The notes: generated from the sequence alone by a model not told the origin. 64,000 bases of DNA from a virus (IMGVR_UViG_3300029122_000292); one strand, 5' to 3'; counted from the first letter of the stretch, positions 23,012 to 63,035 are shown. A program made the numbers and translations.

Positions 23012-23026
23012 AAGGAGTTACGTAGT

Positions 23027-26584: not shown

Positions 26585-26847
26585 TCGCTTCCAGAATCAA
26601 TTCTTAGCCTGAAACGTCCTTATACGATAAGGGTTTCTCAGACATATAGTGATTCTGTAATGAAACTGCTATATCAGCACCAAATATGTGTCTACACCCC
26701 TTATTGCATAAGGGGGAAATGGCATAATATGAAACGAGGTGATATCGTGAAGGCATTCGATAACACATCTTAGGCGAATACACTCGTGGCAATCACCGCA
26801 AGACAGTTATCGTAAAACATCGAGATGAATACGTATTTCAGTTACGG

Positions 26848-26865
26848 CTGCCGGTTGACCGACAG
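26848..26865. promoter_or_regulatory. 18-bp imperfect palindrome CTGCCGGTTGACCGACAG (operator-like), copy A
   Basis: Half-sites CTGCCGG / CCGACAG (reverse complement CTGTCGG) separated by 4 nt; three copies in the window. Confidence 0.5.
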
Positions 26866-27289
26866 TTACGCAAAGGTAGGATGAGGTATCCCGGGGCGGA
26901 GGGGCCTGCTTTCAGCCTCTGAACGAGTCGACGGAGTCAGACCCAGAACCACTGAACGCCGAGCAAGGCGATTTGGTTGCAAAACGCCCGAAACTCAACA
27001 AAGTAGCTCATCAAAGTTCGACAGAAGCTCATCAATTGAACTCAATCAACGCGAGTTGAACGGGTACTGATCAACTTCGGGACCTTTTTAAGATCAATCT
27101 TGAGAGCTTAAAAGAGCAACAACATCATTTAGATCTCGATGAATAATAATGCATAAATATGCAGAAAGGACGAATAATATACAATGATTTATGCATAGCT
27201 AATTGAGGCGCTGCCTAACGCCTATTATAAATAAGGTAGTCGACAAAAATGACACAAAAAATATATTTAAGTTCTGTTTATAATGACAA

Positions 27290-27318
27290 TTGACGACACA
27301 GAGAAAATGTGTTATCAT
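27290..27318 (+). promoter_or_regulatory. sigma70-like promoter TTGACG-N17-TATCAT with TGn extension
   Basis: Read from sequence; 45 nt upstream of the Bro-N gene start. Confidence 0.5.
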
Positions 27319-27363
27319 CATTTCACAAACAGGACTTAAATATACATAAGGGAGGAAAAACAA

Positions 27364-28863
27364 GTGAATGAGAACGAAAACGTAGCGATGCAGCTGGCGA
27401 CCACAAGGAAGTTCGGCGAGCTTGAGATTCAGGTCTACGAGAATCCGGCGGTCGGTCACAGCAGGGTACAGGATGATTTCTGGATGACACGGGAGCAGAT
27501 TGGCACTGCATTGGAATACGATAAGCCGAATGAACGTATCGGCAAGATTCATCAACGTAACGCAGATCGTCTTGACCCACTTTCAACTTTGGTCAAAATG
27601 ACCAAGGTTGAAGGCAATAGAACGGTAAAACGTGAAATTATTTGTTACAATCTGCGTGGTGTTATGGAGATCTGCCGCTACAGCACCCAGCCTAAAGCGA
27701 ACGCCTTCATTGATTTCTGCTGGGATGTGATGGTCGCTCTGATGCAGGGCGAAACCGTATCTCTGGACAGAGGGAAGATGAGTGATGTAGAGTTGCGGCG
27801 ACAGGCACGCTTTGATGTTATGACTCAAGGCATTGAAGAACTTCGCCAGTCTCAGATTCAGCTTTGTTCTCAGATGGCCAAGATGGAAGAAAAGCGCCGG
27901 CAGGACAGGGAAGCTCTTGAGAATTTGATCCATTTCACAAAAGCAGACCTTGAGAAGGCAGAACGCATTGTGAGCAAGAACGACATCATTATCTCCACAA
28001 TTGAACAGATCAAGAAGCAGCTGGCAACGACTATCCAGCAGCCAACTTATCAGAATGGTTCTTATACTCCGCGTAAGACTTACATTCAGCCAGCAGAAAC
28101 TTCGTGGAAACATGACGTTAAGGAGATGGTGAGAAAAATCTCCCACATTGAGGGTGTGCCCCAAAAAGACATCTTTAACGGCATGTACAAAACCTTCGAG
28201 AAAGAGTTCGGATGGTCGGTATACGAAGAACGAAAGCTCTACGCGAAGAAAAAGGATATTTCGGATATTTATTCGATCCCGCTCATTGATATTGTGGAGA
28301 TGGCCAACGATAACATTCGGTCAAGTTTCTATTGCCGACTCAAGGATCGCTATGAGAACGATCTTTTTGATCCCGAGGAAGCAAAGAGGCAGCCGCATGT
28401 GAGCAAGCGAAATCCGCCGATGATCCCTGCCAGCATGATTCCTACACGGCATAAGTTTGAAGATTTTCCGAGTGTGTTGTCTCCTGAAAATCCGGGCGGC
28501 AATGATATCAAGGTTGTAGCAGAGGTTCAGGCAGTTGAAGTTGAAGCTCCAACGGTTGAAACGCCGGTGGCTGAAGCTCTGGTGGTCAAAGAACCGAAAA
28601 AGAAATACTACTACAAGCCGAGCATTACACTTCCGATCGTTGAACCCATTGCAAAAAAGCTGGGTGATAAGACGATTGGGTATTGGGTTACCTATGCAAA
28701 GATCTATGACACGATCGGCGTTGTCAAGATGGATCGTATGCGCAAGGCGTATGTACGTTCTCATAATAAGCCGCCCAAGGCTACTCCTGATATTTTCCAA
28801 CATTCTGATAAGAATATGAAAGTGTTTAAGGAAGCCGCAAAGATTGTGGCGGCAGCTATCTAA
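27364..28863 (+). CDS. Bro-N / KilA-C family antirepressor-like protein (499 aa)
   Basis: N-terminal Bro-N-like segment (FGELEIQVYEN...DFWMTREQIGTALEY...); GTG start after AGGGAGGAAAAACAA. Confidence 0.65.
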   Translation: MNENENVAMQLATTRKFGELEIQVYENPAVGHSRVQDDFWMTREQIGTALEYDKPNERIGKIHQRNADRLDPLSTLVKMTKVEGNRTVKREIICYNLRGVMEICRYSTQPKANAFIDFCWDVMVALMQGETVSLDRGKMSDVELRRQARFDVMTQGIEELRQSQIQLCSQMAKMEEKRRQDREALENLIHFTKADLEKAERIVSKNDIIISTIEQIKKQLATTIQQPTYQNGSYTPRKTYIQPAETSWKHDVKEMVRKISHIEGVPQKDIFNGMYKTFEKEFGWSVYEERKLYAKKKDISDIYSIPLIDIVEMANDNIRSSFYCRLKDRYENDLFDPEEAKRQPHVSKRNPPMIPASMIPTRHKFEDFPSVLSPENPGGNDIKVVAEVQAVEVEAPTVETPVAEALVVKEPKKKYYYKPSITLPIVEPIAKKLGDKTIGYWVTYAKIYDTIGVVKMDRMRKAYVRSHNKPPKATPDIFQHSDKNMKVFKEAAKIVAAAI

Positions 28864-29112
28864 GCTATCTACTTTCCTCCATTGTCCTTGGGACTGACAG
28901 CCGGGAAAGACCGGCATATATCCGGGTGTAGCGAAGCTGGTATCGCGCCAAATTTGGGATTTGGAGATTTCGCCCGTTCAAGTCGGGTCACTCGGACCAT
29001 GGTGCAGGGTCTTTCCTTTCTACCTGTGCCTATTGTGTGTATAAAACGGTTTCCATTAGACGAAACCGCGTGGCTGAAAATGCCGAGCAGGTACGATAAT
29101 CCTGCCTTATAT

Positions 29113-29499
29113 GGGCCCGAAAGGTTTTCGACAGGGCTATGAAAATTCACAATTCGCAGGTCGGCCATCACCTTACGAGGCAAAAAACAATAAACGCTAA
29201 CTACAATAGTTATCGCTGCGCGGCTTGATGCCGTGCCCAAAACAGCATCCTGATAGGCAGGTAAATGTTTGATGGTTCAAAGAATAAATCCCGGAACCCG
29301 ATGTAAACGGTAATAAACACCGGCGTTCTCGGACGCTAAAACCGAGTGGTGGAGTGATGTAACAAACCGTTACGTCCCTGGGTTTGCTGTGTTGGCGGCA
29401 TGAATTCCTTTCAAAAATTCTAAATGCTAACTATTGCGTAAGAAGATTGTGTACGAGTAATAGTTCTGGACGTGGGTTCGAATCCCACCGGGTCCACCA
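29113..29499 (+). ncRNA. ssrA: tmRNA (ssrA); putative tag peptide (A)NYNSYRCAA
   Basis: 5' GGGCCCG pairs with 3' CGGGTCC-A-CCA giving a G3-U70 wobble (AlaRS identity element); T-arm GGGTTCGAATCCC; internal reading frame starting GCT and ending GCG GCT TGA. Confidence 0.75.
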
Positions 29500-29862
29500 G
29501 TGGCGCAAGCCGCAAAGCTAGGTTCGATGCGACAGCGTAGTGTAGTGCGAGGTCGCTGGGGTGGCGCAATTCCACCGTGGATGCAATGCATTCATAACGC
29601 TTTGACCGAAATTGTGCGAACAGACTGCGACGGGGTAGCTCCTCGTGGAGTGAGGGTCTGGTGACAACATGAGTAGGCGATAGGATGACCTGCGAAAGTG
29701 GTCTAGTCAGTTTGGTGCCCGGACTGGCGGAGAGTGGATTTAAAAGGGCAGCCTTTGAGGATGGACTCTGGGGAAGACAAAATGTACCTAGTTGTATCTG
29801 CTGACGCGGTTAAGTCGCATTGCACATCGCCGATGCTGTTACATGGTTAAATCCTCCTCTCT

Positions 29863-29938
29863 GTGGCGTTAGTTCAGTTGGCAGAACACTTGGCTCATAA
29901 CCGAGTAGTCGTGGGTTCAAAGCCCTCACGCCGCACCA
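29863..29938 (+). tRNA. tRNA-Met (anticodon CAT)
   Basis: Manual fold: acceptor GTGGCGT/ACGCCGC, D-stem GTTC/GAAC, anticodon loop CTCATAA, T-loop TTCAAAG, encoded CCA. Confidence 0.75.
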
Positions 29939-29981
29939 TTTCGTGTACGAATATCAACAAATCAAAAAGAGGTAAATCAAA

Positions 29982-30245
29982 ATGGCTGAGAATGCAGCTA
30001 AAAATACCGAAAGATATCAATCCTATAAACTTCAATGGATGTTGGATCATGGACACACATTAGAGGAAATTTTTAGAGAACTCTACATGATTCAAAAGGA
30101 ATACTTGGAAGACGGAGAGTCATGCCCAAGCATTTGGACGTTGTTGGATCGATGGGAAAAGGATATTGGGTTTGGTGGAGAATGTTGGGCTTGCTTTGAT
30201 GAATGGCTGGAGAATGAAGGTAGAGAGGTAAATCAAAATGGCTGA
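29982..30245 (+). CDS. hypothetical protein (87 aa)
   Basis: ORF track; GAGGTAAATCAAAATG. Confidence 0.5.
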   Translation: MAENAAKNTERYQSYKLQWMLDHGHTLEEIFRELYMIQKEYLEDGESCPSIWTLLDRWEKDIGFGGECWACFDEWLENEGREVNQNG

Positions 30246-30909
30246 CAAGTATCTCAGTATCATTACAAACTTCGGCTGCCACTATAGCTGCCCTGAGTGT
30301 ATTGTCCGCAATAACAAGCTCAAGATGACACCGACAGACGAGTATTCTTCTTATATGCAGTTAGAGCATGTTCTGAAGAACGAATGTAATGACTGTAATT
30401 GGGTATCTGTGTCTGGCGGCGGTGATCCACTTTATCACTGGTGGGAACATCAGGCGTGGTGGACAGGATTCTTTTCGGTGTGTAAAGAACTTGGTCGCAA
30501 GATTGAGTTGCATACGAGCTATTATGATTTTGATCATGATGATGGAATTTTAATGTTTCCATTCGAACAGTTTGATAGAGTTGTGTATCATTTGCATTGT
30601 GCAGAGGAGCTTTATAAGATTTGTCGCCGGGGTAAAGAAATCGTTCGAGTGGTATTCGTTGTGGACGATTCTATGGACGAATACGAAGTTAGCAGGATTT
30701 CAGCTATTGTTCAAGAAAGCGACGATATCGACGAGCTTACATTCCGGCAACGCGTGGATGCAAACTATAAGCCGACCTATCATTTGCGCGGTCTCCTGCT
30801 GGCGGGGCATAAAAAGGCTTGGTGGTATGTGACACAGTGCGATTACAATACTTACTTCCACAACGGTAAACTGTACACGAAGTACACGGATATCTTTGAG
30901 AAGGAGTAA
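30238..30909 (+). CDS. small radical-SAM protein (CX3CX2C; QueE- or activase-like size)
   Basis: CHYSCPEC motif near the N-terminus; glycine-rich SVSGGGDPL segment. Confidence 0.55.
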   Translation: MADKYLSIITNFGCHYSCPECIVRNNKLKMTPTDEYSSYMQLEHVLKNECNDCNWVSVSGGGDPLYHWWEHQAWWTGFFSVCKELGRKIELHTSYYDFDHDDGILMFPFEQFDRVVYHLHCAEELYKICRRGKEIVRVVFVVDDSMDEYEVSRISAIVQESDDIDELTFRQRVDANYKPTYHLRGLLLAGHKKAWWYVTQCDYNTYFHNGKLYTKYTDIFEKE

Positions 30910-30914
30910 TTCAG

Positions 30915-31223
30915 ATGTACATTGTCGTAAGCGATTATACCAACGAAAAAGTTGACATCTACAAATCAGTAAGTTTCGATAAAGCATTTCAGGCGAGAAG
31001 CGATGCGATTGATTTTGCTGCCCGTAGCTATCAGAGCTTCTTTGACAATATGCCCAGCGATGAAGCTGCACGGTATGAAAACGCAACGCGAATTAACACT
31101 GACTCTTATGCGGATTTCTGTGGGTGTGCTTTGTGTCCGTATCCCGAGTATGCTATCGGAGCTGCGGTTGATAATGGTGAAGATAATCACATGTACTACA
31201 TGGTATTTAAGGTGGAGGAGTGA
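30915..31223 (+). CDS. hypothetical protein (102 aa)
   Basis: ORF track. Confidence 0.5.
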   Translation: MYIVVSDYTNEKVDIYKSVSFDKAFQARSDAIDFAARSYQSFFDNMPSDEAARYENATRINTDSYADFCGCALCPYPEYAIGAAVDNGEDNHMYYMVFKVEE

Positions 31224-31315
31224 TTTCATGAAGCGATACCTTGTAAGCGTTTGGATACGACAGTCTTATTCCATTTGTGGCAAAAAGCTGAGACCGGATT
31301 CTGAGGTAGTAAGTT

Positions 31316-31540
31316 ATGAAAAAACATAAAGATTTATTGCTGGCAGCCTGCGCATCGGCTGTTTCGTTTTTGAGTCTCGATGATGTTTTTGAGAAACTTC
31401 TACGGCACATCTCGCTTGTTCAAATGGCAACAGGAAACATAAGTTCTCTTTACGGACGTGTCAGCGAGTTGGCTCTTTCGGTATCTGTGGCTCTGTCGCT
31501 TGCGATTGGAGCTGTGGTATATATTTTATTCAAAAATTAA
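31316..31540 (+). CDS. small membrane protein (74 aa)
   Basis: Hydrophobic N- and C-terminal segments. Confidence 0.45.
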   Translation: MKKHKDLLLAACASAVSFLSLDDVFEKLLRHISLVQMATGNISSLYGRVSELALSVSVALSLAIGAVVYILFKN

Positions 31541-31552
31541 AAGGAGGAACGA

Positions 31553-32464
31553 ATGAAGAAGTTCAAAAAGATTTTCGTGGTTTCGTGTGCAATCGTGATG
31601 GCGTTGACCTTTACGGGGTGTACCAAGAAAGAGGTGTATACAATCGAACCTCATGAAACTGCATTTCTGATTTCACTCTCTGAGGGCGGTGGGAAACAGG
31701 CGTCCTTTGAGAGTGAGGCAATGCTCGCTGAAGCAAAGGTGGCAGCCAAACAGGTGTACATTACTTACTCGAAGCGACATCTGTCGCCGACTGACATCAT
31801 TGGTACTTGGGTACCGGATAACATGTTGGTTGTCGTCAATAGAACTCCTGTTACTCGTGAATGGTCCGAGGGCAAGGACAGTGGCACCAGCACTGTCAAC
31901 CAGTCCATCTCTGCCGAAAGCAAGGAGTCTATTGGCTTCTCTGTCGGTATGAACTGCTCTGCTCAGATCTACACTGAAAACGATGCAGTCAAGTTCCTGT
32001 ATTCCTACAACAACAAACAGCTCTCCGAGATTATGGATACTGAAATCCGTGCTCGTGTTGAAGCTGACTTTGTTGAAATGTGCGCCAAGTACACCATGAA
32101 TGAGATCCTTGAGAAGAAGGCCGAGATCATGGAGTATGTCCGCAAGGATGTGACTGAGTATTTTGCAGAACGCGGTATCACGATTACTGTCCTTGGTATG
32201 AAGGATGGCATTGAGTACGACGATGCGTCTGTTCAGGCTGCTATTAACAAGTCCTTTGTGGCTGAGCGCAATGATGAGGCGCAGGAGATTGAGAATCAGA
32301 CTAAGATTTCCAAGGCGAACGCAGAAGCCGAGGCGAATAAAATCATCTCTGAGTCTCTGACTGACCGGCTGATTCAGCAGCAGATGTATGAAAAGTGGGA
32401 TGGTAAGCTTCCTACTTATGTCGGCGGCGATGCCAGCATTCCTGTACTGAACGATATGAAGTAA
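31553..32464 (+). CDS. SPFH (band-7/prohibitin-like) domain lipoprotein (303 aa)
   Basis: Lipobox LTFTGC; Ala/Glu-rich coiled C-terminus typical of the SPFH family; GC3-rich. Confidence 0.6.
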   Translation: MKKFKKIFVVSCAIVMALTFTGCTKKEVYTIEPHETAFLISLSEGGGKQASFESEAMLAEAKVAAKQVYITYSKRHLSPTDIIGTWVPDNMLVVVNRTPVTREWSEGKDSGTSTVNQSISAESKESIGFSVGMNCSAQIYTENDAVKFLYSYNNKQLSEIMDTEIRARVEADFVEMCAKYTMNEILEKKAEIMEYVRKDVTEYFAERGITITVLGMKDGIEYDDASVQAAINKSFVAERNDEAQEIENQTKISKANAEAEANKIISESLTDRLIQQQMYEKWDGKLPTYVGGDASIPVLNDMK

Positions 32465-32553
32465 CCTCGTAGGAACGGAGACATTAAACCCGTGTCCTGA
32501 GATCAACACAAGATCTAAAAACTGTGTGGCAGCTCGGAAAGACGAGCAAGTAT

Positions 32554-32636
32554 GTTTCGGTGCTGGAATCGGCAGACAGGGGAGTCTCAAAAACTTCTGC
32601 GAAAGCATGTGGGTTCAAGTCCCATCCGAAACGCCA
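32554..32636 (+). tRNA. tRNA-Leu (anticodon CAA), type II
   Basis: Acceptor GTTTCGG/CCGAAAC, anticodon loop CTCAAAA, long variable arm, T-loop TTCAAGT, CCA. Confidence 0.7.
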
Positions 32637-32759
32637 TGGGTGAGTTGCGTCGCCCAAAAATCTCCTTTTCCTCACAAATGCTTAGTGGCTCATGAGTTCC
32701 AGACATGAATCACCGTGACTGAACAAGTCGTAGCAGGTACGCAATCCTGTTTTTGATAA

Positions 32760-32845
32760 GTCGGTATGGTGGAATAGGCGAGACACGTCTGCTTTAGGGA
32801 CAGATGCTTAAGTGCATGTGAGTTCAAATCTCACTACCGACACCA
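32760..32845 (+). tRNA. tRNA-Leu (anticodon TAG), type II
   Basis: Acceptor GTCGGTA/TACCGAC, anticodon loop TTTAGGG, variable arm ATGCTTAAGTGCAT, T-arm GTGAG-TTCAAAT-CTCAC, CCA. Confidence 0.6.
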
Positions 32846-32995
32846 ATCTCGCATGGGTAGGATCTTTAGCGGTCAGATCCGGCCGCGCCTGTGCGAGATA
32901 CCACCCCCCTGTGGGGAATGTTAAATTTTTCCATGTACGTTATTCTCGGCTCGCTCGAAAGAGTGCAGCGTGCCTTTGTAAGCCGAGTATTTTAT

Positions 32996-33064
32996 GTGGC
33001 TGTAGCTCAGATGGTAGAGCAGCAAGCTAACTGCGCGCCGTTGGTTCAAGTCCAACCAGTCACT
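32996..33064 (+). tRNA. tRNA-like gene; anticodon arm not resolved by eye
   Basis: Acceptor GTGGCTG/CAGTCAC, D-arm GCTC-AGATGGTA-GAGC, T-arm GTTGG-TTCAAGT-CCAAC. Region between the arms is too short for a standard anticodon arm plus variable loop. Confidence 0.4.
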
Positions 33065-33183
33065 CCGATGCCCGCTTATAGGGTCTCATTCCTCCTATTC
33101 GGGCTTTACCTCTTTTCTTCCTTGTTATTCCCGGCTCCATGGCGAATGCTGTGGCAATAAGGCGTAGTAAGCTGGGTTTATAT

Positions 33184-33258
33184 GCAGCGGTCGTACATCG
33201 GCTAGTATATCAGCCTTCCAAGCTGAGGAGGTGGGTTCGACTCCCATTCGCTGCTCCA
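33184..33258 (+). tRNA. tRNA-Gly (anticodon TCC)
   Basis: Acceptor GCAGCGG/TCGCTGC, anticodon stem TCAGC/GCTGA, loop CTTCCAA, T-loop TTCGACT, CCA. Confidence 0.7.
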
Positions 33259-33566
33259 TCGTGTGCGACGGTTTGAGACTCCTACATGCAAATCCAGCCG
33301 GGTAAGTCCGTCCACAACCGGTGTAGGTAGACATCTTTACTCATTAGGTCTCTAACTAAATGAGGAATAGAAAATCAGTTGTTCCAGCTAGATCGGGGAT
33401 TGGCCGTTCATTGGCAAACGACAGGCATCACACCGGTAAATGATGCTGAGCCAAATAGGAAGGGGAATAAGGTGCAAGTCGAGTAGCTGTCGGACGAATA
33501 CTCTTCAGGTAGCCAGTAAACTGGAACGTAAAACGAATGTTGGCTGTTTCTGATTTTCTTTTATAT

Positions 33567-33653
33567 GCTACCATGATGTAACTGGCAGGCATGAGGGACT
33601 TAAAATCCCTTGCTGGAAACAGCGTGCGGGTTCAAGTCCCGCTGGTAGCACCA
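33567..33653 (+). tRNA. tRNA-Leu (anticodon TAA), type II
   Basis: Acceptor GCTACCA/TGGTAGC, anticodon stem AGGGA/TCCCT, loop CTTAAAA, long variable arm, T-arm GCGGG-TTCAAGT-CCCGC, CCA. Confidence 0.75.
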
Positions 33654-33694
33654 TTGTTCGAATATCAACACATAAAAAATAGGAGCAAAACAAC

Positions 33695-33943
33695 ATGAAT
33701 ATCGTTATTGAAACTAAGGACGACAAATATGTAGCCGGTGTTTATGCTGACGAGGGAGAGAATACCGAAAACGATACGATCATTGATTGTGCTGTAAACG
33801 GGCTTCTTGCTATTATTCGTTTTTATATTCTTAAAGACGAAACCCTTACGATGGAAAACAAGAAGAATGTTGTGTCTGACCTATGCGATGAAATTAAGAA
33901 AAAGCTTTTGGAAGCAATTGAAGAGGAGAGCGCAGTCGTATGA
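33695..33943 (+). CDS. hypothetical acidic protein (82 aa)
   Basis: ORF track; AGGAGCAAAACAACATG. Confidence 0.5.
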   Translation: MNIVIETKDDKYVAGVYADEGENTENDTIIDCAVNGLLAIIRFYILKDETLTMENKKNVVSDLCDEIKKKLLEAIEEESAVV

Positions 33944-34329
33944 ATTCTATTATCAGTCCGTGGGTGTTTTATCTGATTGGCATGGCTGACACCATTCAGA
34001 TTTTGGCGCTTTTCGCTTCTATTTGTTTTGTTGCCATCTCTGGTTATTTGTGGTTTGATTGGATGAATGATTTCGCTCGTTATGGAGAAAAGGATGAAGA
34101 TGTTTTAAGAGAGCGCAAGATTGTTGTAAAGGTGTCAATTGCGGCAATTGTGAGCCTAGCGATTCTTGTCTTTACCCCTTCTTCCAAGACCTGTTATAAA
34201 ATGCTCGCCGCCAATATGTTTACAGAAAAGAATGTAACTGCTGCAACTGAATATGTCACTGACGTAATCGACTATGCAGTCGACAAAGTAAAAGAACTTG
34301 ACCCTGCAACTGAAAATGAAAGGAGCTAA
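33940..34329 (+). CDS. membrane protein (129 aa)
   Basis: Three hydrophobic segments; ATGA overlap. Confidence 0.5.
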   Translation: MNSIISPWVFYLIGMADTIQILALFASICFVAISGYLWFDWMNDFARYGEKDEDVLRERKIVVKVSIAAIVSLAILVFTPSSKTCYKMLAANMFTEKNVTAATEYVTDVIDYAVDKVKELDPATENERS

Positions 34330-34334
34330 ACATT

Positions 34335-34601
34335 ATGATCACCATGTCACATGAGGAAGTTCTTGAGACGATTCCGTTTATGTTTGTTTGCGAAACTCGG
34401 GAAGGTGCTCGTTGGAACAGTGGTACTCGCCGTAGGCTCTGGAACGAACAGTTTACCAAACAGGAACAAGCAGCGTGTGCAAGTTTGTTTAAGATGGCGC
34501 ATGAGTGGGCGCTCATTCGCGGTGTCCCTGATGTTGTTCGGATGGATCAGTCTACATATTGGCTGTGGATCAAGCTTGGCGAGTTTTGTGAAATGCTTTG
34601 A
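34335..34601 (+). CDS. hypothetical protein (88 aa)
   Basis: ORF track. Confidence 0.45.
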   Translation: MITMSHEEVLETIPFMFVCETREGARWNSGTRRRLWNEQFTKQEQAACASLFKMAHEWALIRGVPDVVRMDQSTYWLWIKLGEFCEML

Positions 34602-34616
34602 TCGCGAGGTGATGAC

Positions 34617-34874
34617 GTGAAGGTTTATGTTCTTTATGACTGTGTCGAAAATCCAGACGAGTGGGCGTTTGCTGGTGTTGAACACATTTATGCGAATCAT
34701 GCAGACGCGGTAGATCGGATGCAGGATTTGTTCTTAGAGTGTTTGAACGAACACGACATAAATAATGCAGAAAGTATGCGAGATAGCTATATTGACGATT
34801 GGGGAGCGCGTGTCGCGGACGTTCCGGCTGGTTATCGTCACACATGGACAATTACAGAGGAGACAGTTGTATGA
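34617..34874 (+). CDS. hypothetical protein (85 aa)
   Basis: ORF track. Confidence 0.45.
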   Translation: MKVYVLYDCVENPDEWAFAGVEHIYANHADAVDRMQDLFLECLNEHDINNAESMRDSYIDDWGARVADVPAGYRHTWTITEETVV

Positions 34875-35095
34875 AATACGATTTACATGTTGGGCAATTA
34901 GTTAGAATCGGCAATGAAGTGTCTGAAAACGATATGAATCGCAACAAAAGAGGGCGCATCGTAAGATTTGATAAAGATTACCCAGTTGTAGAGATGTTAG
35001 ACCCATTTACAAGTGGAGAAACAACGATTACTTGGTGCCCGCAGAGATTTTGGGAGCCGTGTCCAACAAAACTTACTTGCAAATCACTTCTGTGA
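34872..35095 (+). CDS. 74-aa SH3/KOW-like small protein with C-terminal ...TCKSLL tail
   Basis: ORF 34799..35095 trimmed to MKYDLHVGQLVRI. Paralog of 41540, 42637, 42926 and 45562. Confidence 0.55.
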
Positions 35096-35147
35096 TTTTA
35101 TTTTTTGGTCACACAAACATAACTTAAATATATAAAGGAGCGAAGAA

Positions 35148-35273
35148 ATGGTTATCAAGTATGTTGACGGCCACTATGAAATCGTATCGGCGGATAGTGG
35201 TCAGTTTATTCAGTCGGCCGATACATGGGACGAAGCTCTGGATAATATGAAGGAGCTACTACAAACCGCATAA
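35148..35273 (+). CDS. very small protein (41 aa)
   Basis: MVIKYVDGHYEIVSADSGQF... preceded by AAAGGAGCG and the CACAAAC..ACTTAAATATA motif. Confidence 0.4.
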   Translation: MVIKYVDGHYEIVSADSGQFIQSADTWDEALDNMKELLQTA

Positions 35274-35332
35274 GGTACAACGGGTGATTGCCCGTTTACA
35301 TATCAATCTTTAATTACAAAGGAGAAAACATT

Positions 35333-35755
35333 ATGAAAGCAATCGTTAAGTTCAACAATCTGTTCGTCACTTCCGCATACGATGTCGCTACCCTGAAGAA
35401 GGTCGAGAAGTTCCGTCCCGAGGCTTTGAAGCTGTATGAGGGCGAGGGCAAGGAGAAGAAGCTTGTGAGCGCCATTGCTGTTGCTTCTAAGGATGATATT
35501 AGCAAGTTCGGCGTGGCTTTTGCTCAGGATGCAGTCACTGGCGATAAGGTTGCCGTTTTGAGCCGTCCTGTTCCTGCTGGTATGAAGTCTGAGGCAGAGA
35601 TCAAGGAGTGGGTTCGCGACATGATTGGTCTGACCATTGTTCGCGGCACCAAGATCGAGGAGCAGATCGCAGCCGCTATGGAGTCCATCAATGCTGATGA
35701 GGCTGCCATGAATGCTGCAATCACTATCGATGGTGAGGACGCAGACGCCGAGTAA
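35333..35755 (+). CDS. hypothetical protein (141 aa), GC3-rich; probably abundant
   Basis: ORF 35288..35755 trimmed to MKAIVKF after AAAGGAGAAAACATT. Confidence 0.6.
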   Translation: MKAIVKFNNLFVTSAYDVATLKKVEKFRPEALKLYEGEGKEKKLVSAIAVASKDDISKFGVAFAQDAVTGDKVAVLSRPVPAGMKSEAEIKEWVRDMIGLTIVRGTKIEEQIAAAMESINADEAAMNAAITIDGEDADAE

Positions 35756-35852
35756 GAGCGCTGCTGAGGTTCCACGCCGGATGTTCCTGCGCAATACGTC
35801 CGGCATTTTAACGAGTAAACGATATTTTTCAAATTAAAAAGGAGTACATACT

Positions 35853-36092
35853 ATGATTAAGATTTGGGTTACCACTAATGACGACAAGATCGAGGACGTT
35901 GTTGCTACCAGCATGACCCCGAAGGACGTGTTCGCAAAGCATGGCGTGAACTACGCCAATGGCCAGAGCACTCTGGATGGCTGCATTCTGACGGTGGCAC
36001 AGCTGAACACTCCGCTGTCTGAGCTGGGCGTCGGCGATGAGGTGTATCTGGCCTCCATCTCCAAGCACGACAATGCGACTGGTATGAACTGA
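35853..36092 (+). CDS. 79-aa protein with possible MoaD/ThiS-like beta-grasp (ubiquitin-like) fold
   Basis: MIKIWV... N-terminus and GDEVYLASISKHDNATG near the C-terminus resemble MoaD (MIKVLFF... GDEVAFFPPVTGG). No terminal GG unless processed. Confidence 0.35.
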   Translation: MIKIWVTTNDDKIEDVVATSMTPKDVFAKHGVNYANGQSTLDGCILTVAQLNTPLSELGVGDEVYLASISKHDNATGMN

Positions 36093-36235
36093 TCGCGCTG
36101 ATCCGAAAATAAACAACTGAATTCGTTATTGGTTACAACGATATTCTAAACACTGCAGCCGCTGGCAGGCCGGTTAAAGTCTGCCTTATATGTGTCCAGT
36201 ATCTGGGCTTTTAAATTAAACAGGAGGAAATACAT

Positions 36236-37753
36236 ATGGCTTTCACAGCTTATTCCAGCAAGATCGGTTCGAGAGATTGCGACGAAGCATATCCGTTGAT
36301 TCTGAATTGCGACAATAGCAATCTCAACGATAATGTGATGTTGTCTGTACTGCGCGTACTGATCAATGATGACCGTATCAAGCATTCTATTTCGGGAGGG
36401 CATCGCATTCAGTCAATTATTGATTGCCAACAGTTCTATATGGGCGACGACGAAAAGTTCACTAAGGACATGTTCGTTCATGAAGATAACGCTTTCAATC
36501 AGATGAAATTTGGCATCATGTTTCAGACGATCGACGATAAGAAAGCAGACGCCATTATTTCTGAGTTCAAGAAGTACAATGCGGATTACGAAGCTGCCGG
36601 TTGGAAGATCATGGATGTCGCAGCTAAGTACATCGATAAGAATGGCAACGTCTATGTATATCAGAATGAAAAGAAGCAGGGTGTTGTCGTTGTTTGTGCT
36701 AAGAAGAATCTGATTCAGGCCATGCACATGGCGGCGAGTTGTTTGCCAAACCTGATGCCGTGGTTTTTCGCTGATCAGCCGCTGACTGATGATGAGAAGG
36801 CGATGCTGCGTACTCTTTATGATCAGGACAACGAAGCTTTCGGCAAATACATGGAGAAGGCATACGAGACCGGCGATTTCTATGGTAAGAAGTTGCGTGG
36901 CGCTCTGAAGGGATTTTGCAAGAAGGATTATGCAAACGAAATTACCCGGCAGGAGCGATATATTCGTGAAATCCAAGATGAAATCGAAAGAAAATATAAC
37001 GATATCCGTGAGAGAAATAAAAATCTTGAAGAAGCTCAATTTAAACTCACTATGATCATGGACCGTGCTTGCTGCACTGAGGATGACGAAGCTGCAATTG
37101 TTAATTTCCTGAAGCGCTGCAAGACGCTGGTTTATCTTGACTCCAATAGTGATCGAATCTCTATTGGTTATGTTGGCACGCTAAACGATTGTGATGAGGG
37201 CGAGTTCCGCACTTGTGTTGAGAAAAAGGCAAATAGTCGAAGCTACATTTTTCAGCGTTCGCCGTATGACACGGAACTTACGAAAGATTTCTTTGTGTCA
37301 ATTTGGAAGACCCATCGGTTCGCTATTCGCACCTACTGTGAATGGCGACTGTATTCCAGCTGCAAGGTTGAAGCAATTCGTGGTTCTGATATGCAAGGTC
37401 GCTCTGATTTGATGAAGGATCGTATTCGTCAGCCCCATATCGATCGGCATGCGTGCTATAGCGGTTATCGAGAGATGCTCAATGCGCTTAGTGTAAAACA
37501 CGATTACATTGGCGTCCTGACTACGATTATTGGTTCAAGCGCATCTATCAACTGGAAGGATGGCACCGTTGTAAGCGACCTCATGTACGATTTGTTTGAC
37601 GAATACTATATCAAAACTCGTAAGTGTATCGAGGATAACGCGGGTAATCTGTACACGGTGGCAGAAGTATTTGATATTCTCAAGAACGAAAAGGACGCAG
37701 CAGCAACAGCAGAAGCAGTAAAGAAGGAGGTCGCTAAAGATGAAGCCCATTAA
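36236..37753 (+). CDS. hypothetical protein (505 aa)
   Basis: ORF track; GGAGGAAATACATATG. Confidence 0.6.
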   Translation: MAFTAYSSKIGSRDCDEAYPLILNCDNSNLNDNVMLSVLRVLINDDRIKHSISGGHRIQSIIDCQQFYMGDDEKFTKDMFVHEDNAFNQMKFGIMFQTIDDKKADAIISEFKKYNADYEAAGWKIMDVAAKYIDKNGNVYVYQNEKKQGVVVVCAKKNLIQAMHMAASCLPNLMPWFFADQPLTDDEKAMLRTLYDQDNEAFGKYMEKAYETGDFYGKKLRGALKGFCKKDYANEITRQERYIREIQDEIERKYNDIRERNKNLEEAQFKLTMIMDRACCTEDDEAAIVNFLKRCKTLVYLDSNSDRISIGYVGTLNDCDEGEFRTCVEKKANSRSYIFQRSPYDTELTKDFFVSIWKTHRFAIRTYCEWRLYSSCKVEAIRGSDMQGRSDLMKDRIRQPHIDRHACYSGYREMLNALSVKHDYIGVLTTIIGSSASINWKDGTVVSDLMYDLFDEYYIKTRKCIEDNAGNLYTVAEVFDILKNEKDAAATAEAVKKEVAKDEAH

Positions 37754-38636
37754 TATCACGGAGCAGGTTGTAGCAGATATGGCACGTGAATTTGTTCAGG
37801 AGCTGTATAAGACCGGTAGGGTTAAGACGGATTCTTTCTCATACAAGAAGAATTTTGCGTCTGTTAAAAAGGATGCTGTCGAGGTGAATTTCACCTATGA
37901 AGCGTATTCTCAGATGTTTGCGTTGATTGATCACTTCGATTGTGAGGTTGCATGGCGCGGCATTGTGAATCGTATCGATAAGACGCATTTTCAGATTACC
38001 AAGATTCTGCTGTATCCTCAGACTGTGACTGGTACCACAGTGGACACCGATCAGGAAGAATTTTCAAAGTGGTTTCAGGCGCTGCCTGTTGAAACGATTC
38101 GCAACCTGAGATTTCAGGGACACAGCCATGTCGATTTCGGTGTAACGCCGAGCAGTCGCGATATGGAGGATCAGTGGCGATTCATTGACGGACTCAAGCC
38201 GACGAGTTATCAGATTTTTATGATTTGGAACAAGAAGCGTCAGTATAACGTTCGCGTCATTGATCTGGCCGACAATGTCATCTATGAGGGAGCCGATGTC
38301 AAGGTTACTGTTGGAGATTTTGACTCGACTCGATTTCTCGAGGATGCAGACAAAACGGTTCGAAAGCGCCCTGTATATGTCGCAAGCACAGTCGCAAATT
38401 ACGGAGCTTATGGAGCAGGCACCTATTATGGTAAAGCAGTTACGCCGCAAAAAACGTACCCGCAAACAGTTACCACGCAAACGCCAGTGCCGCAAATCAA
38501 GACGGTAACTGGCGCAGCGGCTCCGAAAGTCAAGGAAGTGTCTGAGACTCGATATCCATTGGTCAATCATTACAAGGAGAATCCAGAAGATCTTGATACG
38601 TGCTGGAATTCCAGCTGTTTTCCGTATGACAATTAA
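37740..38636 (+). CDS. JAMM/MPN+ family metallopeptidase (298 aa)
   Basis: Canonical JAMM motif HSHVDFGVTPSSRD (HxHx7Sx2D) with upstream Glu. Confidence 0.65.
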   Translation: MKPINITEQVVADMAREFVQELYKTGRVKTDSFSYKKNFASVKKDAVEVNFTYEAYSQMFALIDHFDCEVAWRGIVNRIDKTHFQITKILLYPQTVTGTTVDTDQEEFSKWFQALPVETIRNLRFQGHSHVDFGVTPSSRDMEDQWRFIDGLKPTSYQIFMIWNKKRQYNVRVIDLADNVIYEGADVKVTVGDFDSTRFLEDADKTVRKRPVYVASTVANYGAYGAGTYYGKAVTPQKTYPQTVTTQTPVPQIKTVTGAAAPKVKEVSETRYPLVNHYKENPEDLDTCWNSSCFPYDN

Positions 38637-38651
38637 AGAAAGGACTACAAA

Positions 38652-39326
38652 ATGAATCTGAGTAAGCTTGAAATGGTATTCAACCCCGATGATATCAGCG
38701 GCCAGATCCACATTATTGGTTGTGGTTCGGTTGGCTCTACTGTGGCGGAACTTCTTGCACGGTATGGTCTGAAGAATTTCACGCTGTGGGATATGGACGA
38801 GGTTGAAAGCAAGAATATCGTCAACCAGATGTTCTTCGCCAACAATATTGAAGCTCCAAAGGTCGAGGCGGTTCGCGATATTATCTGTGCCATCAATCCT
38901 GATGCCAAAGATGAAATTGTTCTGAAGCCGAATGGTTGGCAGGGTGAGATGATTCGCGGTTATGTATTCCTCGCGGTCGACAATATCGAAATTCGCAAGC
39001 AATTCATGGAGGCGAACAAGTACAATCCGAATATCAAGGGTGTGTTTGATGTCCGCACCGGGTTCCATGATGCACAGTGCTGGGCAGCAGATTGGAGTAA
39101 GGAAAAAGACCGAGAGAATTTATGGAACTCTATGAATTTCTCTCATGAAGATGCACAGGCTGGCACTCCGGTTTCTGCATGTGGCATCGTTCAAGGTCTC
39201 GCCCCGACTGTTCGTTTCGTGTGTTGTTTGGCGGTTACGAACTTTATCAATTTCGCGACTAATATCGCACCTTTGAAGAAAATGATCGTTGCAAATCCGT
39301 ACACTTTTAACGTTACGGCTGCATAA
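38652..39326 (+). CDS. ThiF/MoeB-family E1-like adenylyltransferase (224 aa)
   Basis: Rossmann motif IIGCGSVGSTVAELLARYGL followed by LWDMDEVESKNIVNQ, as in the E1/MoeB/ThiF nucleotide-binding site. Confidence 0.65.
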   Translation: MNLSKLEMVFNPDDISGQIHIIGCGSVGSTVAELLARYGLKNFTLWDMDEVESKNIVNQMFFANNIEAPKVEAVRDIICAINPDAKDEIVLKPNGWQGEMIRGYVFLAVDNIEIRKQFMEANKYNPNIKGVFDVRTGFHDAQCWAADWSKEKDRENLWNSMNFSHEDAQAGTPVSACGIVQGLAPTVRFVCCLAVTNFINFATNIAPLKKMIVANPYTFNVTAA

Positions 39327-39375
39327 AGAATAAATAAAAAAAAATCGTGATGAATTACTGTTGAAATATACAGTC

Positions 39376-39393
39376 CTGCCGGATGACCGACAG
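39376..39393. promoter_or_regulatory. 18-bp imperfect palindrome CTGCCGGATGACCGACAG, copy B, at the head of the 290-nt leader upstream of the RT
   Basis: Identical at 18/18 to copy C and 17/18 to copy A. Confidence 0.5.
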
Positions 39394-39620
39394 GTTCGTA
39401 AAGGTAAGATCATATACATCCCACCGGGAAACCGAGGCGTGTGATCGCATGCGATGTACGTCGGCTCCGCAGGTATGCTGATTCGCTGATCGAAATAATC
39501 AACGTAGACACGTGCCGGCAATGAGCTCAAAACGCAAACCCGCAGGAAGACGTCCCGTCGAAGGCACCTCCCTGAGCATACAAACCACCATTTAGATCAC
39601 GATTTAGAAGAGGTAAACAT
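39394..39620 (+). ncRNA. candidate structured ncRNA / RT-associated RNA in the non-coding region upstream of the RT
   Basis: About 230 nt with no ORF; contains the perfect 12-nt palindrome ATCGCATGCGAT and several GC hairpins. Identity as msr/msd-like RNA is inference only. Confidence 0.3.
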
Positions 39621-40856
39621 ATGTACGTTACTTATTGGAATCCGCCGAGAACAAGGCAGATTACGTTTGATGAAATCCTTAGTGGAGTCGTTGACGTGAA
39701 CCAGTTGAAATATGCTGGCGATGAAACTTCTACTCGAACTGTACAGCGTAATGGGTTGAATGATCGTCTCGTAGCAATTACAAACGTTACCAATATGATT
39801 GCACGGCTCGCGGAATTCAATCAGAAATACGCTCGTCTTGAAGCAGTACGTGACCTGTCGACGTATTACTATCACTTTGAAATTCCCAAGAAGACTGGTG
39901 GCGTTCGTCCAATTGATGCACCGAACAATGAACTGAGCGATGCGTTGGTTGAGTTGCGGACGCTGTTAAAAAGTTTCATGATTGCTGATTATCACACGGC
40001 AGCACACGCATATATCAATGGGCGCGGCACTCTGAGTGCAATTAAAAAGCATCAGGCGGGACACAGATATACAGTAAAAGATCGTGAGACTGGGAAAGAA
40101 AAGATCGTCACCTATGAAAACAACTGGGCTGTCAAGTTTGACTTTCATGGATTCTTCCCGAGCTCCACTCCTGAGTTTATCTACAGTATGTTCAGAAAGA
40201 TTTATCCGTTTTCTCTCATTATGAAGGATCGAAATGGATACAATCAGCTGACTAAAGCGATGCGCCTGTGCTTCTTGAACGGCGGTCTTCCGCAGGGAAC
40301 GCCAATCAGTCCGTGGATCACGAACGTTATGATGATCCCGTTTGATTATATGTTAAACAAGAAGCTTTCTTACAAATATACCATGAAAGACGGCATTTCT
40401 CGCACTTTTACATACACCAGATATGCAGACGATATCACCATCAGCTGCTATTTGAGTTTTGACCCGATGGAAATGCAGGATATTATCAAAGAGACGTTGG
40501 ACGCAATCAATGCTCCGTTTACTTTGAATGAAGAAAAAACGCATTATGGTAATCGGCATTCGAGCGAAAACTGGATGCTCGGTCTGATGTGGAACGCCAA
40601 TAACGATATCACAGTCGGATGGCGCAATTTTAAGGACTTCAAGAAGATGGCATCTAATTACATCATCTGCAAGAAAGAAGGGAAAACGTGGGACCTTGAA
40701 GACTTGCAGCAGTTTAATGGCAGGCTGAATTACTACCGTATGGTAGAAAAAGAATCGGTTGACACGGTGATTTCTCGGTACAACGAAAAGTATCGTGTTG
40801 ATATGATGGCAATGCTCAAAGCTGACTTAAAACCAAAAGAAGGAGTTGTTTTCTAA
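39621..40856 (+). CDS. reverse transcriptase, retron/group-II-like clade (411 aa)
   Basis: RT motifs IPKKTGGVRPI, FDFHGFFPS, GLPQGTPISP, YTRYADDITIS; N-terminal similarity to retron RTs. Confidence 0.85.
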   Translation: MYVTYWNPPRTRQITFDEILSGVVDVNQLKYAGDETSTRTVQRNGLNDRLVAITNVTNMIARLAEFNQKYARLEAVRDLSTYYYHFEIPKKTGGVRPIDAPNNELSDALVELRTLLKSFMIADYHTAAHAYINGRGTLSAIKKHQAGHRYTVKDRETGKEKIVTYENNWAVKFDFHGFFPSSTPEFIYSMFRKIYPFSLIMKDRNGYNQLTKAMRLCFLNGGLPQGTPISPWITNVMMIPFDYMLNKKLSYKYTMKDGISRTFTYTRYADDITISCYLSFDPMEMQDIIKETLDAINAPFTLNEEKTHYGNRHSSENWMLGLMWNANNDITVGWRNFKDFKKMASNYIICKKEGKTWDLEDLQQFNGRLNYYRMVEKESVDTVISRYNEKYRVDMMAMLKADLKPKEGVVF

Positions 40857-41194
40857 TGATTGAAATGATGTGTAGAGATGGCGGCACTCCAGTTGAATTG
40901 CTCGATCAAGCGGCAAGTGTCGTAGAGGAATCCATTGGGTGTCCAGTTGACCTGTTGGATATCGACGACCACAGAGCAATGGTCTATTGGGGGCCGTCTG
41001 ATGTTGCAAGCGCAATCAAGGAGCTTGGCATCAAAGAAATCGATGCAGAGGATATGAGCTTATGTGCAGATCTCTTGTGCGATTTTGAAGTGAATATTCA
41101 TCAGGCAATGCTTGAGGCCGGACACGACGCTCTACAGAGCTGTTTGGAATGTCTTGTTGATGAACTGCGAAAACAGGACAAAGAATCCAAGTAA
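40856..41194 (+). CDS. small acidic protein translationally coupled to the RT (112 aa)
   Basis: ATGA overlap with RT stop. Confidence 0.55.
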   Translation: MIEMMCRDGGTPVELLDQAASVVEESIGCPVDLLDIDDHRAMVYWGPSDVASAIKELGIKEIDAEDMSLCADLLCDFEVNIHQAMLEAGHDALQSCLECLVDELRKQDKESK

Positions 41195-41241
41195 TTATAT
41201 ATTGTAATCTCTTTTGAATATCGGGCGTTTTACGTCGCGAG

Positions 41242-41259
41242 CTGCCGGATGACCGACAG
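41242..41259. promoter_or_regulatory. 18-bp imperfect palindrome CTGCCGGATGACCGACAG, copy C
   Basis: Followed by about 280 nt of hairpin-rich non-coding sequence (for example GCTGCCTGAGTTGGCAGC). Confidence 0.5.
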
Positions 41260-41539
41260 TTATGAAGAATACCATAGCACGCTCATACGGGCTCCATGGG
41301 CTGCCTGAGTTGGCAGCCTCGCCCTCCTGAGCTATGGATCAAATTAGTTCGCAAGCACGGAGTCTCCGTTCTGCAGCCTAGATCCCAGCAGAGCTGGAGA
41401 TCGCGGCTGCAATCGCTGCGACTCATTGGCCATCAGAACATTTACTCGACAATGCTTCCGGGATCAAAGATCCCTCCAAATTATCTCGCAAATGTTCTTC
41501 CAGCCAACTGTTACTCACAATTTAGAAAAGAGATTGATT

Positions 41540-41803
41540 ATGGATTACAAATATAAAATTGGACAAAAAGTACGAATTCGGAAAGACTTGACAGCTGGTG
41601 CAGAATATCCAATGCAGAGCGGAGAAAGCTATGGTTGCAATCCGGGAGTTAATGAAGATATGGAAAGATACCGTGGTCAACTTATGACAATCGATCGCCA
41701 AACATACGGTGTTTATACGCTCTGTGAGGACAACGAATATTGGAGTTGGACTGACACGATGTTTGAGTCTCCAAAACCACTTACATGTAAAAGTCTTTTG
41801 TAA
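41540..41803 (+). CDS. 87-aa SH3/KOW-like small protein with C-terminal ...TCKSLL tail
   Basis: ORF 41426..41803 trimmed to MDYKYKIGQKVRIRKDL. Confidence 0.55.
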   Translation: MDYKYKIGQKVRIRKDLTAGAEYPMQSGESYGCNPGVNEDMERYRGQLMTIDRQTYGVYTLCEDNEYWSWTDTMFESPKPLTCKSLL

Positions 41804-41817
41804 AGGAGTGAATTTTA

Positions 41818-42633
41818 ATGGCAGAAACCGCAAAGAAAGTGGCACAAAAAACCATTCTTTTCCCAGTTGAAGATCAGCCTGCAAAACTCGTCGTTACAGA
41901 GGACGATATTGAACGAATTATTCAGCAGGCAGTTAAAAGTGCCACTGCAACGAAAAAAGCACGGAAACCTCGTCGGACGGACAGTCTTTATCTCAAGGAT
42001 GGGCGTAGAAAGCCAACCCCGGCAGATCCTATCAAGTCAAAGGAAGATTTTAAGAAAATTGTTGATTATCTTGGATCAAATGGCACTGAAGAAATTGCGC
42101 TCAGGAACAAAACACTATTCATTCTCGGCTGTTCAATTGGTGTTCGATGCGGCGATTTGTTGAAGCTTAAAACGGCTGATGTTTATTATGAGAACGCTCA
42201 TGTAAAAGATCATGTTGAGCTGATCGAACAGAAGACCGGCAAGCGAAACGTGTGTAAGATTTCTCATATGGCAAAAGAAGCTTTAAGAGAATATTATCAG
42301 GCAATTAGTTTTCGAATTGACCGCGACACGCTTCTTTTTCAGAGCAAGAAAGGTGGACAGCTTAACGTTAGATCAGTGAGCAACCTTTTGAAGAAGGCTG
42401 GTAAGGCGTGTGGTTTGAATATTGAGTTATCTACTCACACTATGCGTAAAACTTATGCTATGGCCGCGTTACAGAGTGCAGAAGGTACAGTTGATGAAGC
42501 GAACATCGTGAGTATTCTGCAAAACAAATTTAACCACAGTAATCAGCGTATTACGATGAGATATATCAAAATGGATCAAGAAAAACTTGATGAAGTCTCT
42601 GAGAATGTTTCCGACTGGTTTGAAGGAGAATAA
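41818..42633 (+). CDS. tyrosine recombinase / phage-integrase-family catalytic domain protein (271 aa)
   Basis: Arg I (GVRCGDLLKL), HxxR (THTMRKTYA) and catalytic Tyr (ITMRYIKMD). Confidence 0.7.
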   Translation: MAETAKKVAQKTILFPVEDQPAKLVVTEDDIERIIQQAVKSATATKKARKPRRTDSLYLKDGRRKPTPADPIKSKEDFKKIVDYLGSNGTEEIALRNKTLFILGCSIGVRCGDLLKLKTADVYYENAHVKDHVELIEQKTGKRNVCKISHMAKEALREYYQAISFRIDRDTLLFQSKKGGQLNVRSVSNLLKKAGKACGLNIELSTHTMRKTYAMAALQSAEGTVDEANIVSILQNKFNHSNQRITMRYIKMDQEKLDEVSENVSDWFEGE

Positions 42634-42636
42634 GCT

Positions 42637-42909
42637 ATGAATTATAGATTTAAACCCGGTGACAAAGTGACCGTTAGAAAAGATTTGGCGACATATGAAA
42701 CGTATCATATGTTATCTGGAGAAACCCCATGTGATGCCATTATTGCTACTTATTCTATGGAAAATCTTCGAGGGAAACAAGTCACAATCGAGAACTATGA
42801 TTGTTGTGGGAGTGCAATGTGTTACAGGGTAAAAGAAAGCTCCAGATATTGGGCAGATGAAATGTTTGAAGAGTCTAAAAAGCCGTTTACGTGTAAAAGT
42901 CTATTATGA
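42637..42909 (+). CDS. 90-aa SH3/KOW-like small protein with C-terminal ...TCKSLL tail
   Basis: ORF track; KPGDKVTVRKDL...WADEMFE. Confidence 0.6.
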   Translation: MNYRFKPGDKVTVRKDLATYETYHMLSGETPCDAIIATYSMENLRGKQVTIENYDCCGSAMCYRVKESSRYWADEMFEESKKPFTCKSLL

Positions 42910-42925
42910 AAAGAGGTAAGAGAAC

Positions 42926-43210: not shown

Positions 43211-43219
43211 GGTGATTGT

Positions 43220-43375: not shown

Positions 43376-43489
43376 CCGATATCGTTGACGGGGAACCGAT
43401 TGGAGGGGTATGGACGGATAAATACAGTTGGGTTTGGCATAGCTTTGAAGTTACTAATAAAATTGAAAAATTAAAGGAGAATAATAACA

Positions 43490-63014: not shown

Positions 63015-63035
63015 ATATTATGAAGGAGAAGGATT

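Follow-up and report, generated by a model that had tools for sequence, protein, structure and literature searches.

A phage reverse transcriptase gene with three probable retron-type msr-msd RNA genes and a neighboring ubiquitin-like gene cassette

To our knowledge, every account of a retron describes one reverse transcriptase (RT), one template RNA and one effector. Retrons in phage genomes are already known. Ubiquitin-like (Ubl) conjugation modules are represented by Bil, which has the order Ubl-E2-JAB-E1, by Bub, and by Cap2 and Cap3 of type II CBASS. The present analysis concerns a 64,000-nucleotide stretch of phage DNA (IMGVR_UViG_3300029122_000292), referred to throughout as the window, and an 18-nucleotide (nt) box that occurs in it three times. 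We hold with good confidence that each of the three loci is a gene for a retron-type msr-msd RNA, in which the box forms the second hairpin of the msr part, H2. To judge from the sequence, all three RNAs are apparently served by the one RT of the phage. We class the system with retrons, outside any named type.

The window belongs to a large phage with a transfer-messenger RNA (tmRNA), nine tRNAs and a twister ribozyme, and IMG/VR contigs of about 145 kb are closely related to it. The original prediction had described an imperfect palindrome in three nearly identical copies, each heading a non-coding leader, with two of the copies bracketing the RT gene. The box (CTGCCGGWTGACCGACAG) was found exactly three times, at 26848-26865, 39376-39393 and 41242-41259, always on the + strand and with no mismatch in any copy. 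A pattern search of the whole window that allowed three mismatches gave no fourth copy; 0.01 copies are expected by chance, and none of 100 shuffles gave three. The copies belong to three non-coding RNAs (ncRNAs), designated A, B and C, and a single RT gene does lie between the second and the third. The additional similarity proposed for A and B was recovered at 86% over 35 nt, beginning at the box. A search for the motif in related phages, proposed as a check, showed that the same positions are kept in IMG/VR: the exact 18-mer is present in 32 stretches, 31 of which are the same three loci in relatives of about 145 kb. The remaining match (L041) lies in an unrelated GC-rich coding contig and was put down to chance.

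Contrary to the original prediction, the box does not head its element. Each element begins 30-36 nt upstream of the box, at a segment designated a1, and follows a common plan of a1 (9-11 nt), a G within G-N-A-T, hairpin H1, hairpin H2 (the box), a variable body of approximately 170-250 nt, TTTAG and a second segment, a2, for a total of 264-332 nt. In all three RNAs a2 is the exact reverse complement of a1, and TTTAG directly abuts a2. H2 is a 7-bp hairpin with a C.A mismatch and an AUGA loop. ncRNA A (26818..27141, + strand, 324 nt; covariance model 49 bits, E 2e-8) has a1 at 26818-26826 (CATCGAGAT), a candidate branching G at 26827, H1 at 26832-26846, H2 at 26848-26865, TTTAG at 27128-27132 and a2 at 27133-27141 (ATCTCGATG). 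ncRNA B (39342..39605, + strand, 264 nt; 52.9 bits, E 2e-9) lies immediately upstream of the RT gene, with a1 at 39342-39351 (AAATCGTGAT), the candidate branching G at 39352, H1 at 39357-39374, H2 at 39376-39393, TTTAG at 39591-39595 and a2 at 39596-39605 (ATCACGATTT). ncRNA C (41205..41536, + strand, 332 nt; 41.7 bits, E 8.5e-7) lies downstream of the RT gene and of the 112-aa gene that follows it, with a1 at 41205-41215 (TAATCTCTTTT), the candidate branching G at 41216, H1 at 41221-41240, H2 at 41242-41259, TTTAG at 41521-41525 and a2 at 41526-41536 (AAAAGAGATTG).

Minimum free energy (MFE) folds of A, B and C all have a1 and a2 closed and H1 and H2 formed. The stable hairpins claimed for the three flanks were significant for A (fold z -2.2) and for C (z -5.3), which carries a hairpin of about 80 nt near a2, and were weak for B. 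The flanks had also been described as free of open reading frames (ORFs). They contain no conserved ORF, and a mechanical ORF at 41296-41556 lies within copy C; this small ORF was rejected as a gene, its ATG and frame being lost in close relatives. Promoter and terminator scans were uninformative for A and B; a weak site that ends at 41203 immediately precedes C. No complementarity between the msd bodies and other parts of the window was found.

Two independent scans delimit the elements. A covariance model of a1-G-H1-H2, built from 21 distinct homologues, matched the window at exactly these three loci (E 2e-9 to 8.5e-7), and the next best match had an E of 2.6. A second scan took no account of the box and required just a stem of 8 bp or more that directly abuts GNAT and AG. 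It returned these three loci again, together with two matches within ORFs, and the - strand of the window gave none. The extra a1/a2-type matches, at 22816-23107 and 43360-43778, were attributed to chance because they lie within ORFs and have no model match.

The same geometry was found in the relatives examined, which cover RT identities between about 40 and 99%. In 26 of 28 model matches a1 and a2 form a stem of 8-16 bp, with the G directly adjoining its 5' arm and AG immediately preceding its 3' arm; the AG lies mostly within TTTAG, and the RNAs are 128-369 nt long. The G directly after the last a1 pair is invariant (21/21 and 20/20 aligned RNAs). The folding and covariation analysis that had been suggested for the leaders found that the pairing of a1/a2, H1 and H2 is kept while the sequences change. 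For H1 and H2 together, 81% of cells are paired, compared with 32-43% for slid partners, a value reached in none of 500 shuffles, and double-change cells number 83 against 21-35. For a1/a2 the corresponding values are 92% against 34-50% (again 0 of 500 shuffles) and 82 against 18-26; these a1/a2 counts are inflated, a point to be held against our interpretation, because a2 was placed by maximizing pairing, and the flush TTTAG/AG serves as an independent anchor. RNAalifold on the raw MAFFT alignment recovered H1 only, and H2 required a stated structure.

These homologues also bear on the nature of the box. The original prediction offered it as a DNA operator, a palindrome through which a dimeric regulator of the phage would control three transcription units together. 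The two inverted half-sites of 7 nt, their 4-bp spacer, the exact threefold repetition and the placement of the copies upstream of genes on the same strand all agree with such an operator. However, relatives change the sequence completely and keep the pairing. In relatives with 44-71% RT identity the box position reads CACTCAGGCTAAGCCGAGTG, CATCTTGGTTTTATCAGATG, CTCTCAGGTGATATTCGAGAG and others, and CATTACGCCTAAGGCGGATG and CACTCTGGTTTTATCGAGTG are also seen there among other lineages. Throughout these replacements the stem stays paired and retains an internal bulge or wobble, and its spacing from the invariant G upstream does not change; bulges and G.U pairs make poor DNA palindromes. That the sequence changes while the hairpin shape is kept speaks for an RNA structure and against a sequence-specific DNA operator. 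In addition, the position of the box is constant within an element bounded by a1 and a2 and does not coincide with promoter-like sites. In L053 (9642-12556) a single RT is flanked by five RNAs, and a 600-nt stretch holds three of these in tandem with no genes in between. The downstream genes are not conserved partners of the elements either, since among relatives they vary between RT, Bro-N, small SH3-like genes and tyrosine or serine recombinases. We therefore regard an operator as very improbable. The other suggestion of the original prediction, three paralogous ncRNAs with a common 5' end, was borne out, in that the common part is the msr and is bounded by the covarying a1/a2. Its interpretation as a whole is thus partly supported.

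The retron-type RNA genes appear to be read in common by one RT. Among paralogues within a genome H2 is 74% identical, compared with 43% between genomes. The other segments have no such excess (a1, 37% within and 47% between; H1, 26 and 29%; post-H2, 41 and 38%), and H2 is the only segment more alike within a genome than between genomes. An 18-nt island of identity in otherwise diverged paralogues points most readily to a shared, genome-specific reader, for which the single RT would be the obvious candidate. The pattern fits H2 as the recognition hairpin for that RT. Relatives have one to five such RNAs per RT, two or three being usual, the distribution of the element strictly follows that of one RT clade, and an orthologous RNA fills the gap between the E1 gene and the RT gene in every relative examined. 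Since one to five RNAs per RT recur across the clade, the use of several templates appears to be a property of the clade and not an accident of this genome. In L054 (11340-14346), the downstream ncRNA is directly followed by two tRNA-like genes, and another RT gene (448 aa) lies 2 kb beyond them.

The two parts of the RNA also differ in their rate of change. Among near-identical phages the first 65 nt or so are approximately 100% conserved and the body 65-85%. The body of ncRNA A (26890-27125) occurs as two unrelated alleles with the same a1, msr and a2 (L029, L032, L046, L047), as if the template part had been exchanged like a cassette. A conserved msr and a fast-evolving body would be the modular pattern expected of msr versus msd.

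That bodies and stems diverge while the 5' part is conserved is also relevant to mobile elements. Small non-autonomous elements resembling miniature inverted-repeat transposable elements (MITEs), with a1 and a2 as their terminal inverted repeats, would account for units of about 300 nt that are bounded by inverted repeats and spread over 14 kb. However, MITEs show the opposite pattern: here it is the terminal repeats that vary from copy to copy and the internal 5' part that is conserved, and this explanation was rejected for that reason. Moreover, relatives have the copies at orthologous positions, and every copy is on the RT strand. Its probability is close to negligible. A diversity-generating retroelement (DGR) was rejected as well: no template repeat/variable repeat (TR/VR) pair, which would be about 100 nt long with differences at adenines, and no direct repeat longer than 40 nt was present in 25000-46000, and the RT is closest to retron RTs, not to DGR RTs.

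The positions of the three RNAs relative to genes could instead suggest cis-regulatory 5' leaders, similar to riboswitches or attenuators, for the Bro-N and RT genes and for the unit of a small gene and a recombinase, with no connection to reverse transcription. A gap of 15 nt separates ncRNA B from the RT start codon, in ncRNA C a2 overlaps a purine-rich stretch just before the ATG at 41540, and a type VI retron RNA can also gate translation (10.1101/2025.10.22.683967). For copy A the leader role claimed by the original prediction fails, because the RNA ends at 27141, leaving a gap of 220 nt before the Bro-N/Ant-like gene (27364..28863, + strand, 499 aa), and that gene has a promoter-like site of its own at 27290-27318. 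Leaders would also not explain tandem copies, copies that precede unrelated genes, or the strict co-distribution with one RT clade, and the a1-G/TTTAG-a2 geometry has no role in known leaders. Leaders as the whole explanation are accordingly quite unlikely, and a leader role of B and C is at most secondary. As a separate observation, a Bro-N/Ant-like gene is preceded by at least one such ncRNA in three lineages, the window, L052 (211-1981) and L053 (11954-13678), even where the Bro-N gene adjoins the RT gene instead of being 12 kb off. A functional tie between this gene and the ncRNAs is possible.

The RT gene (39621..40856, + strand) encodes a retron-like RT of 411 aa (Pfam RVT_1, 1.5e-13), and tblastn found no second RT in the window. 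The best PADLOC matches of the protein are all retron RTs (RT_II-A at 2e-37, III-A, XII, XIII and I-A), as are 12 of 12 matches in a PDB sequence search (Ec83, Ec78, Ec86, Ec67, Kva2). The catalytic YxDD is intact, within YTRYADD at residues 265-271, and is invariant in 29 homologues. Residues 1-75 (39621-39850) form a clade-specific, highly conserved N-terminal extension (MYITYWNPPxTRQITFDEIL...) that falls outside the alignments to solved retron RTs; tblastn matches to generic retron RTs, at 25-30% identity, begin at about residue 77. The RT C-terminus was also considered as an E1 substrate and rejected, as it lacks both conservation and a terminal Gly. Directly after the RT gene lies a gene for a strongly acidic protein of 112 aa (40856..41194, + strand) with no Pfam, PADLOC, NCBIfam or PHROG match. 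In close and mid-distance phage relatives a gene always stands at this place, and by tblastn homologues follow the RT in L048-L052 and L058. As a guess, this protein may be a partner or a DNA mimic.

Upstream of ncRNA B, a cassette at 35288-39326 encodes a 155-aa protein, a 79-aa Ubl-like protein, a 505-aa protein, a JAMM peptidase and a ThiF/E1 protein. The 79-aa Ubl candidate (35853..36092, + strand) has an invariant C-terminal K-x-D-N-A followed by 0-4 residues. All six matches of its profile in the PDB are ubiquitin-like, the best being SAMP2 at a weak E of 0.0098, and there is no GG C-terminus. The 505-aa protein (36236..37753, + strand) has two alpha/beta domains joined by a long helix and an invariant Cys169. 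The JAMM/MPN+ metallopeptidase (37740..38636, + strand, 298 aa) is deubiquitinase-like; its motif E69...H128-S-H130-x7-S138-x-x-D141 is invariant in 37 homologues, and its Foldseek matches are Rpn11 (2e-9), CSN5, JAMM1 and BubCD. The ThiF/E1-like adenylyltransferase (38652..39326, + strand, 224 aa), directly upstream of ncRNA B, matches Pfam ThiF (7e-21), NCBIfam ThiF and 6A-MBL cap2_3, and the PADLOC Cap2 E1-E2 models (1.6e-15). No recognizable E2 was found in the cassette. At RT identities of at least 33% and where upstream DNA was available, the E1 gene is directly upstream of the RT gene in 22 of 22 loci, usually with JAMM and the large protein too, JAMM being present wherever there was enough upstream DNA. 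Generic retron RT loci contained the cassette genes in 0 of 5 cases. The cassette and RT also occur together in a bacterial chromosomal island (L056, an Oscillospiraceae metagenome-assembled genome).

Several observations weigh against the interpretation of these loci as a retron-type system. First, the RT scores below every family-specific cutoff, the best being NCBIfam retron_St85_RT with 148 against 235 bits, and it is thus placed in no named subfamily. Secondly, two retron RT motifs are degenerate. NAXXH, in which the His is the most conserved residue of the motif (PMC7736814), reads AIKKH, compared with NAKIH in Ec83 and NAAAH in Ec78; the clade consensus of this region X is DAxKKH, and of the motif just H144 is kept, where it is invariant. 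VTG of region Y in RT7 reads MLG (WMLG versus HVTG of Ec83 and Ec78); L320 and G321 are invariant in the clade, and of VTG just the G is kept. Third, the body of the RNAs is several hairpins in the MFE folds and not one long msd hairpin, the fold of ncRNA B is no better than its shuffles (z -1.05), and no Rfam match was found over the three regions at the gathering score, with none at E < 1. Fourth, G.U cells number 30 and A.C cells 19, a difference that does not decide the strand by itself and is partly an alignment artefact. Lastly, the linkage between the RT and the cassette is one of synteny.

Some of these observations agree with templates for an RT that works in a non-retron mode, making, for example, unbranched or protein-primed cDNA, or copying in a repeated or rolling manner as DRT2/DRT9-type systems do, and no branched multicopy single-stranded DNA (msDNA). 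The degenerate NAXXH and VTG, the clade-specific N-terminal extension, the multi-hairpin bodies in place of one msd stem, and weak similarities to Drt2 and Drt3a are all in its favor. However, retron priming is defined by just this arrangement, an invariant G directly adjoining a covarying a1/a2 stem, and the similarity to retron RTs far exceeds that to DRT (148 versus 40 bits). We consider a non-retron mode unlikely. The degenerate NAXXH and VTG, the extension of about 75 residues and the lack of fit to Types I-XIII are the reasons for placing the system outside the named retron types.

If the three loci are msr-msd genes, the proposed mechanism is as follows. The RT would recognize and bind H2 of A, B and C, and the a1/a2 stem would set the branching G beside the first templated base. 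Priming would occur from the 2'-OH of G26827, G39352 and G41216, and copying would begin at the G of TTTAG (27132, 39595 and 41525) and read back into the variable body. The outcome would be three different branched msDNAs, all starting 5'-CTAAAT. The RT and its RNAs may act with the Ubl-like/505-aa/JAMM/E1 cassette as one mobile system, a proposal drawn from gene linkage only, with Clostridia phages and genomic islands as its presumed carriers. The likeliest role for such a system would be in phage-host or phage-phage conflict, and it is speculative that the several msDNAs are alternative sensors or ligands.

The sequence GATC is enriched in RNAs A, B and C (12 observed and 3.7 expected, a count reached by 0.3% of equal-sized windows) and also in the RNAs of relatives (44 versus 24.8). 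The template start in A and B reads G followed by ATC. Dam methylation of msDNA triggers some retrons.

The window contains further features outside the system. A Twister-P5 ribozyme lies at 21777-21866 on the + strand (47.1 bits against a gathering score of 37.6), and a phage-encoded tmRNA with the tag ANYNSYRCAA lies at 29113-29499. The nine tRNA genes are in 28922-33653 and 62746-63942. Four paralogous small genes, encoding about 87-94 aa at 32-42% identity, are located at 41540-41803, 42637-42909, 42926-43210 and 45568-45825, and at least two members of this family (41540-45825) have a near-identical 3' end.

A natural system with one RT and many templates would reveal how RT-RNA specificity is encoded, here by a hairpin of about 18 nt, and, if confirmed as such, would be a ready-made scaffold for multiplexed in-vivo production of single-stranded DNA. 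Bacterial islands and large Clostridia phages of the gut both carry the RT clade with the cassette, and this linkage suggests, on the evidence of gene order, an as yet undescribed tie of reverse transcription to ubiquitin-like conjugation in microbial conflict. In addition, three "intergenic" regions of a common family of human-gut phages of about 145 kb can now be annotated. Tentatively, and at somewhat less than even chances, we propose that the system is an unclassified retron type, a natural "multitron" in which one RT selects the RNAs of a family of dispersed and tandem msr-msd genes through one co-evolving hairpin and a Ubl/JAMM/E1 partner stands in place of a toxin. The DNA made by the RT would then be linked, in conflict between phage and host, to the tagging of proteins (or nucleic acids).

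The cassette may be compared with Bil, Bub and Cap2-Cap3. Like these, it has the order Ubl-like protein, large protein, JAMM and E1, its E1 matches Cap2 E1-E2 models, and its JAMM protein matches Rpn11 and BubCD. Unlike these, it has no recognizable E2, its Ubl candidate ends in DNA (+0-4 residues) and not in GG, and the module is coupled to an RT and ncRNAs rather than to a CD-NTase or standing alone. The type VI retron hybrid RNA (10.1101/2025.10.22.683967) resembles the present RNAs in that a retron RNA is joined to a downstream coding start, ribosome-binding regions here directly adjoining a2 in C and the 3' end in B; the present RNAs differ in having no conserved small ORF inside them, and A is joined to no gene. 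Our literature search found no description of a retron with ThiF, of a retron with Ubl/JAB or of natural multi-ncRNA retrons, nor, for retron-like RTs in viromes, any description of this system.

The system also resembles retrons in several ways. The RT is nearest to retron RTs, an ncRNA lies directly upstream of it on the same strand, a covarying a1/a2, an invariant G after a1 and conserved msr hairpins are combined with a fast-evolving template part, and phages and mobile islands are the carriers. Unlike in retrons, there are one to five msr-msd genes per RT (three in this phage), one of them 12.5 kb away and some in tandem, and the RT has NAXXH and VTG reduced to an invariant H and G, an N-terminal extension of about 75 aa and a multi-hairpin body in its RNAs. 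None of the effectors listed for retron Types I-XIII (PMC7736814) is matched, the neighbors here being Ubl-like, JAMM and E1 proteins, and the words ubiquitin, JAB and adenylyltransferase are absent from that classification (Mestre et al. 2020). A parallel in organization is found in engineered multitrons, or retron arrays (PMC10370050), in which one RT likewise serves several ncRNAs with a common msr and different templates. The words natural, naturally, "in nature" and native are absent from that paper. Multitrons are synthetic, whereas the arrangement described here is natural and conserved across a clade.

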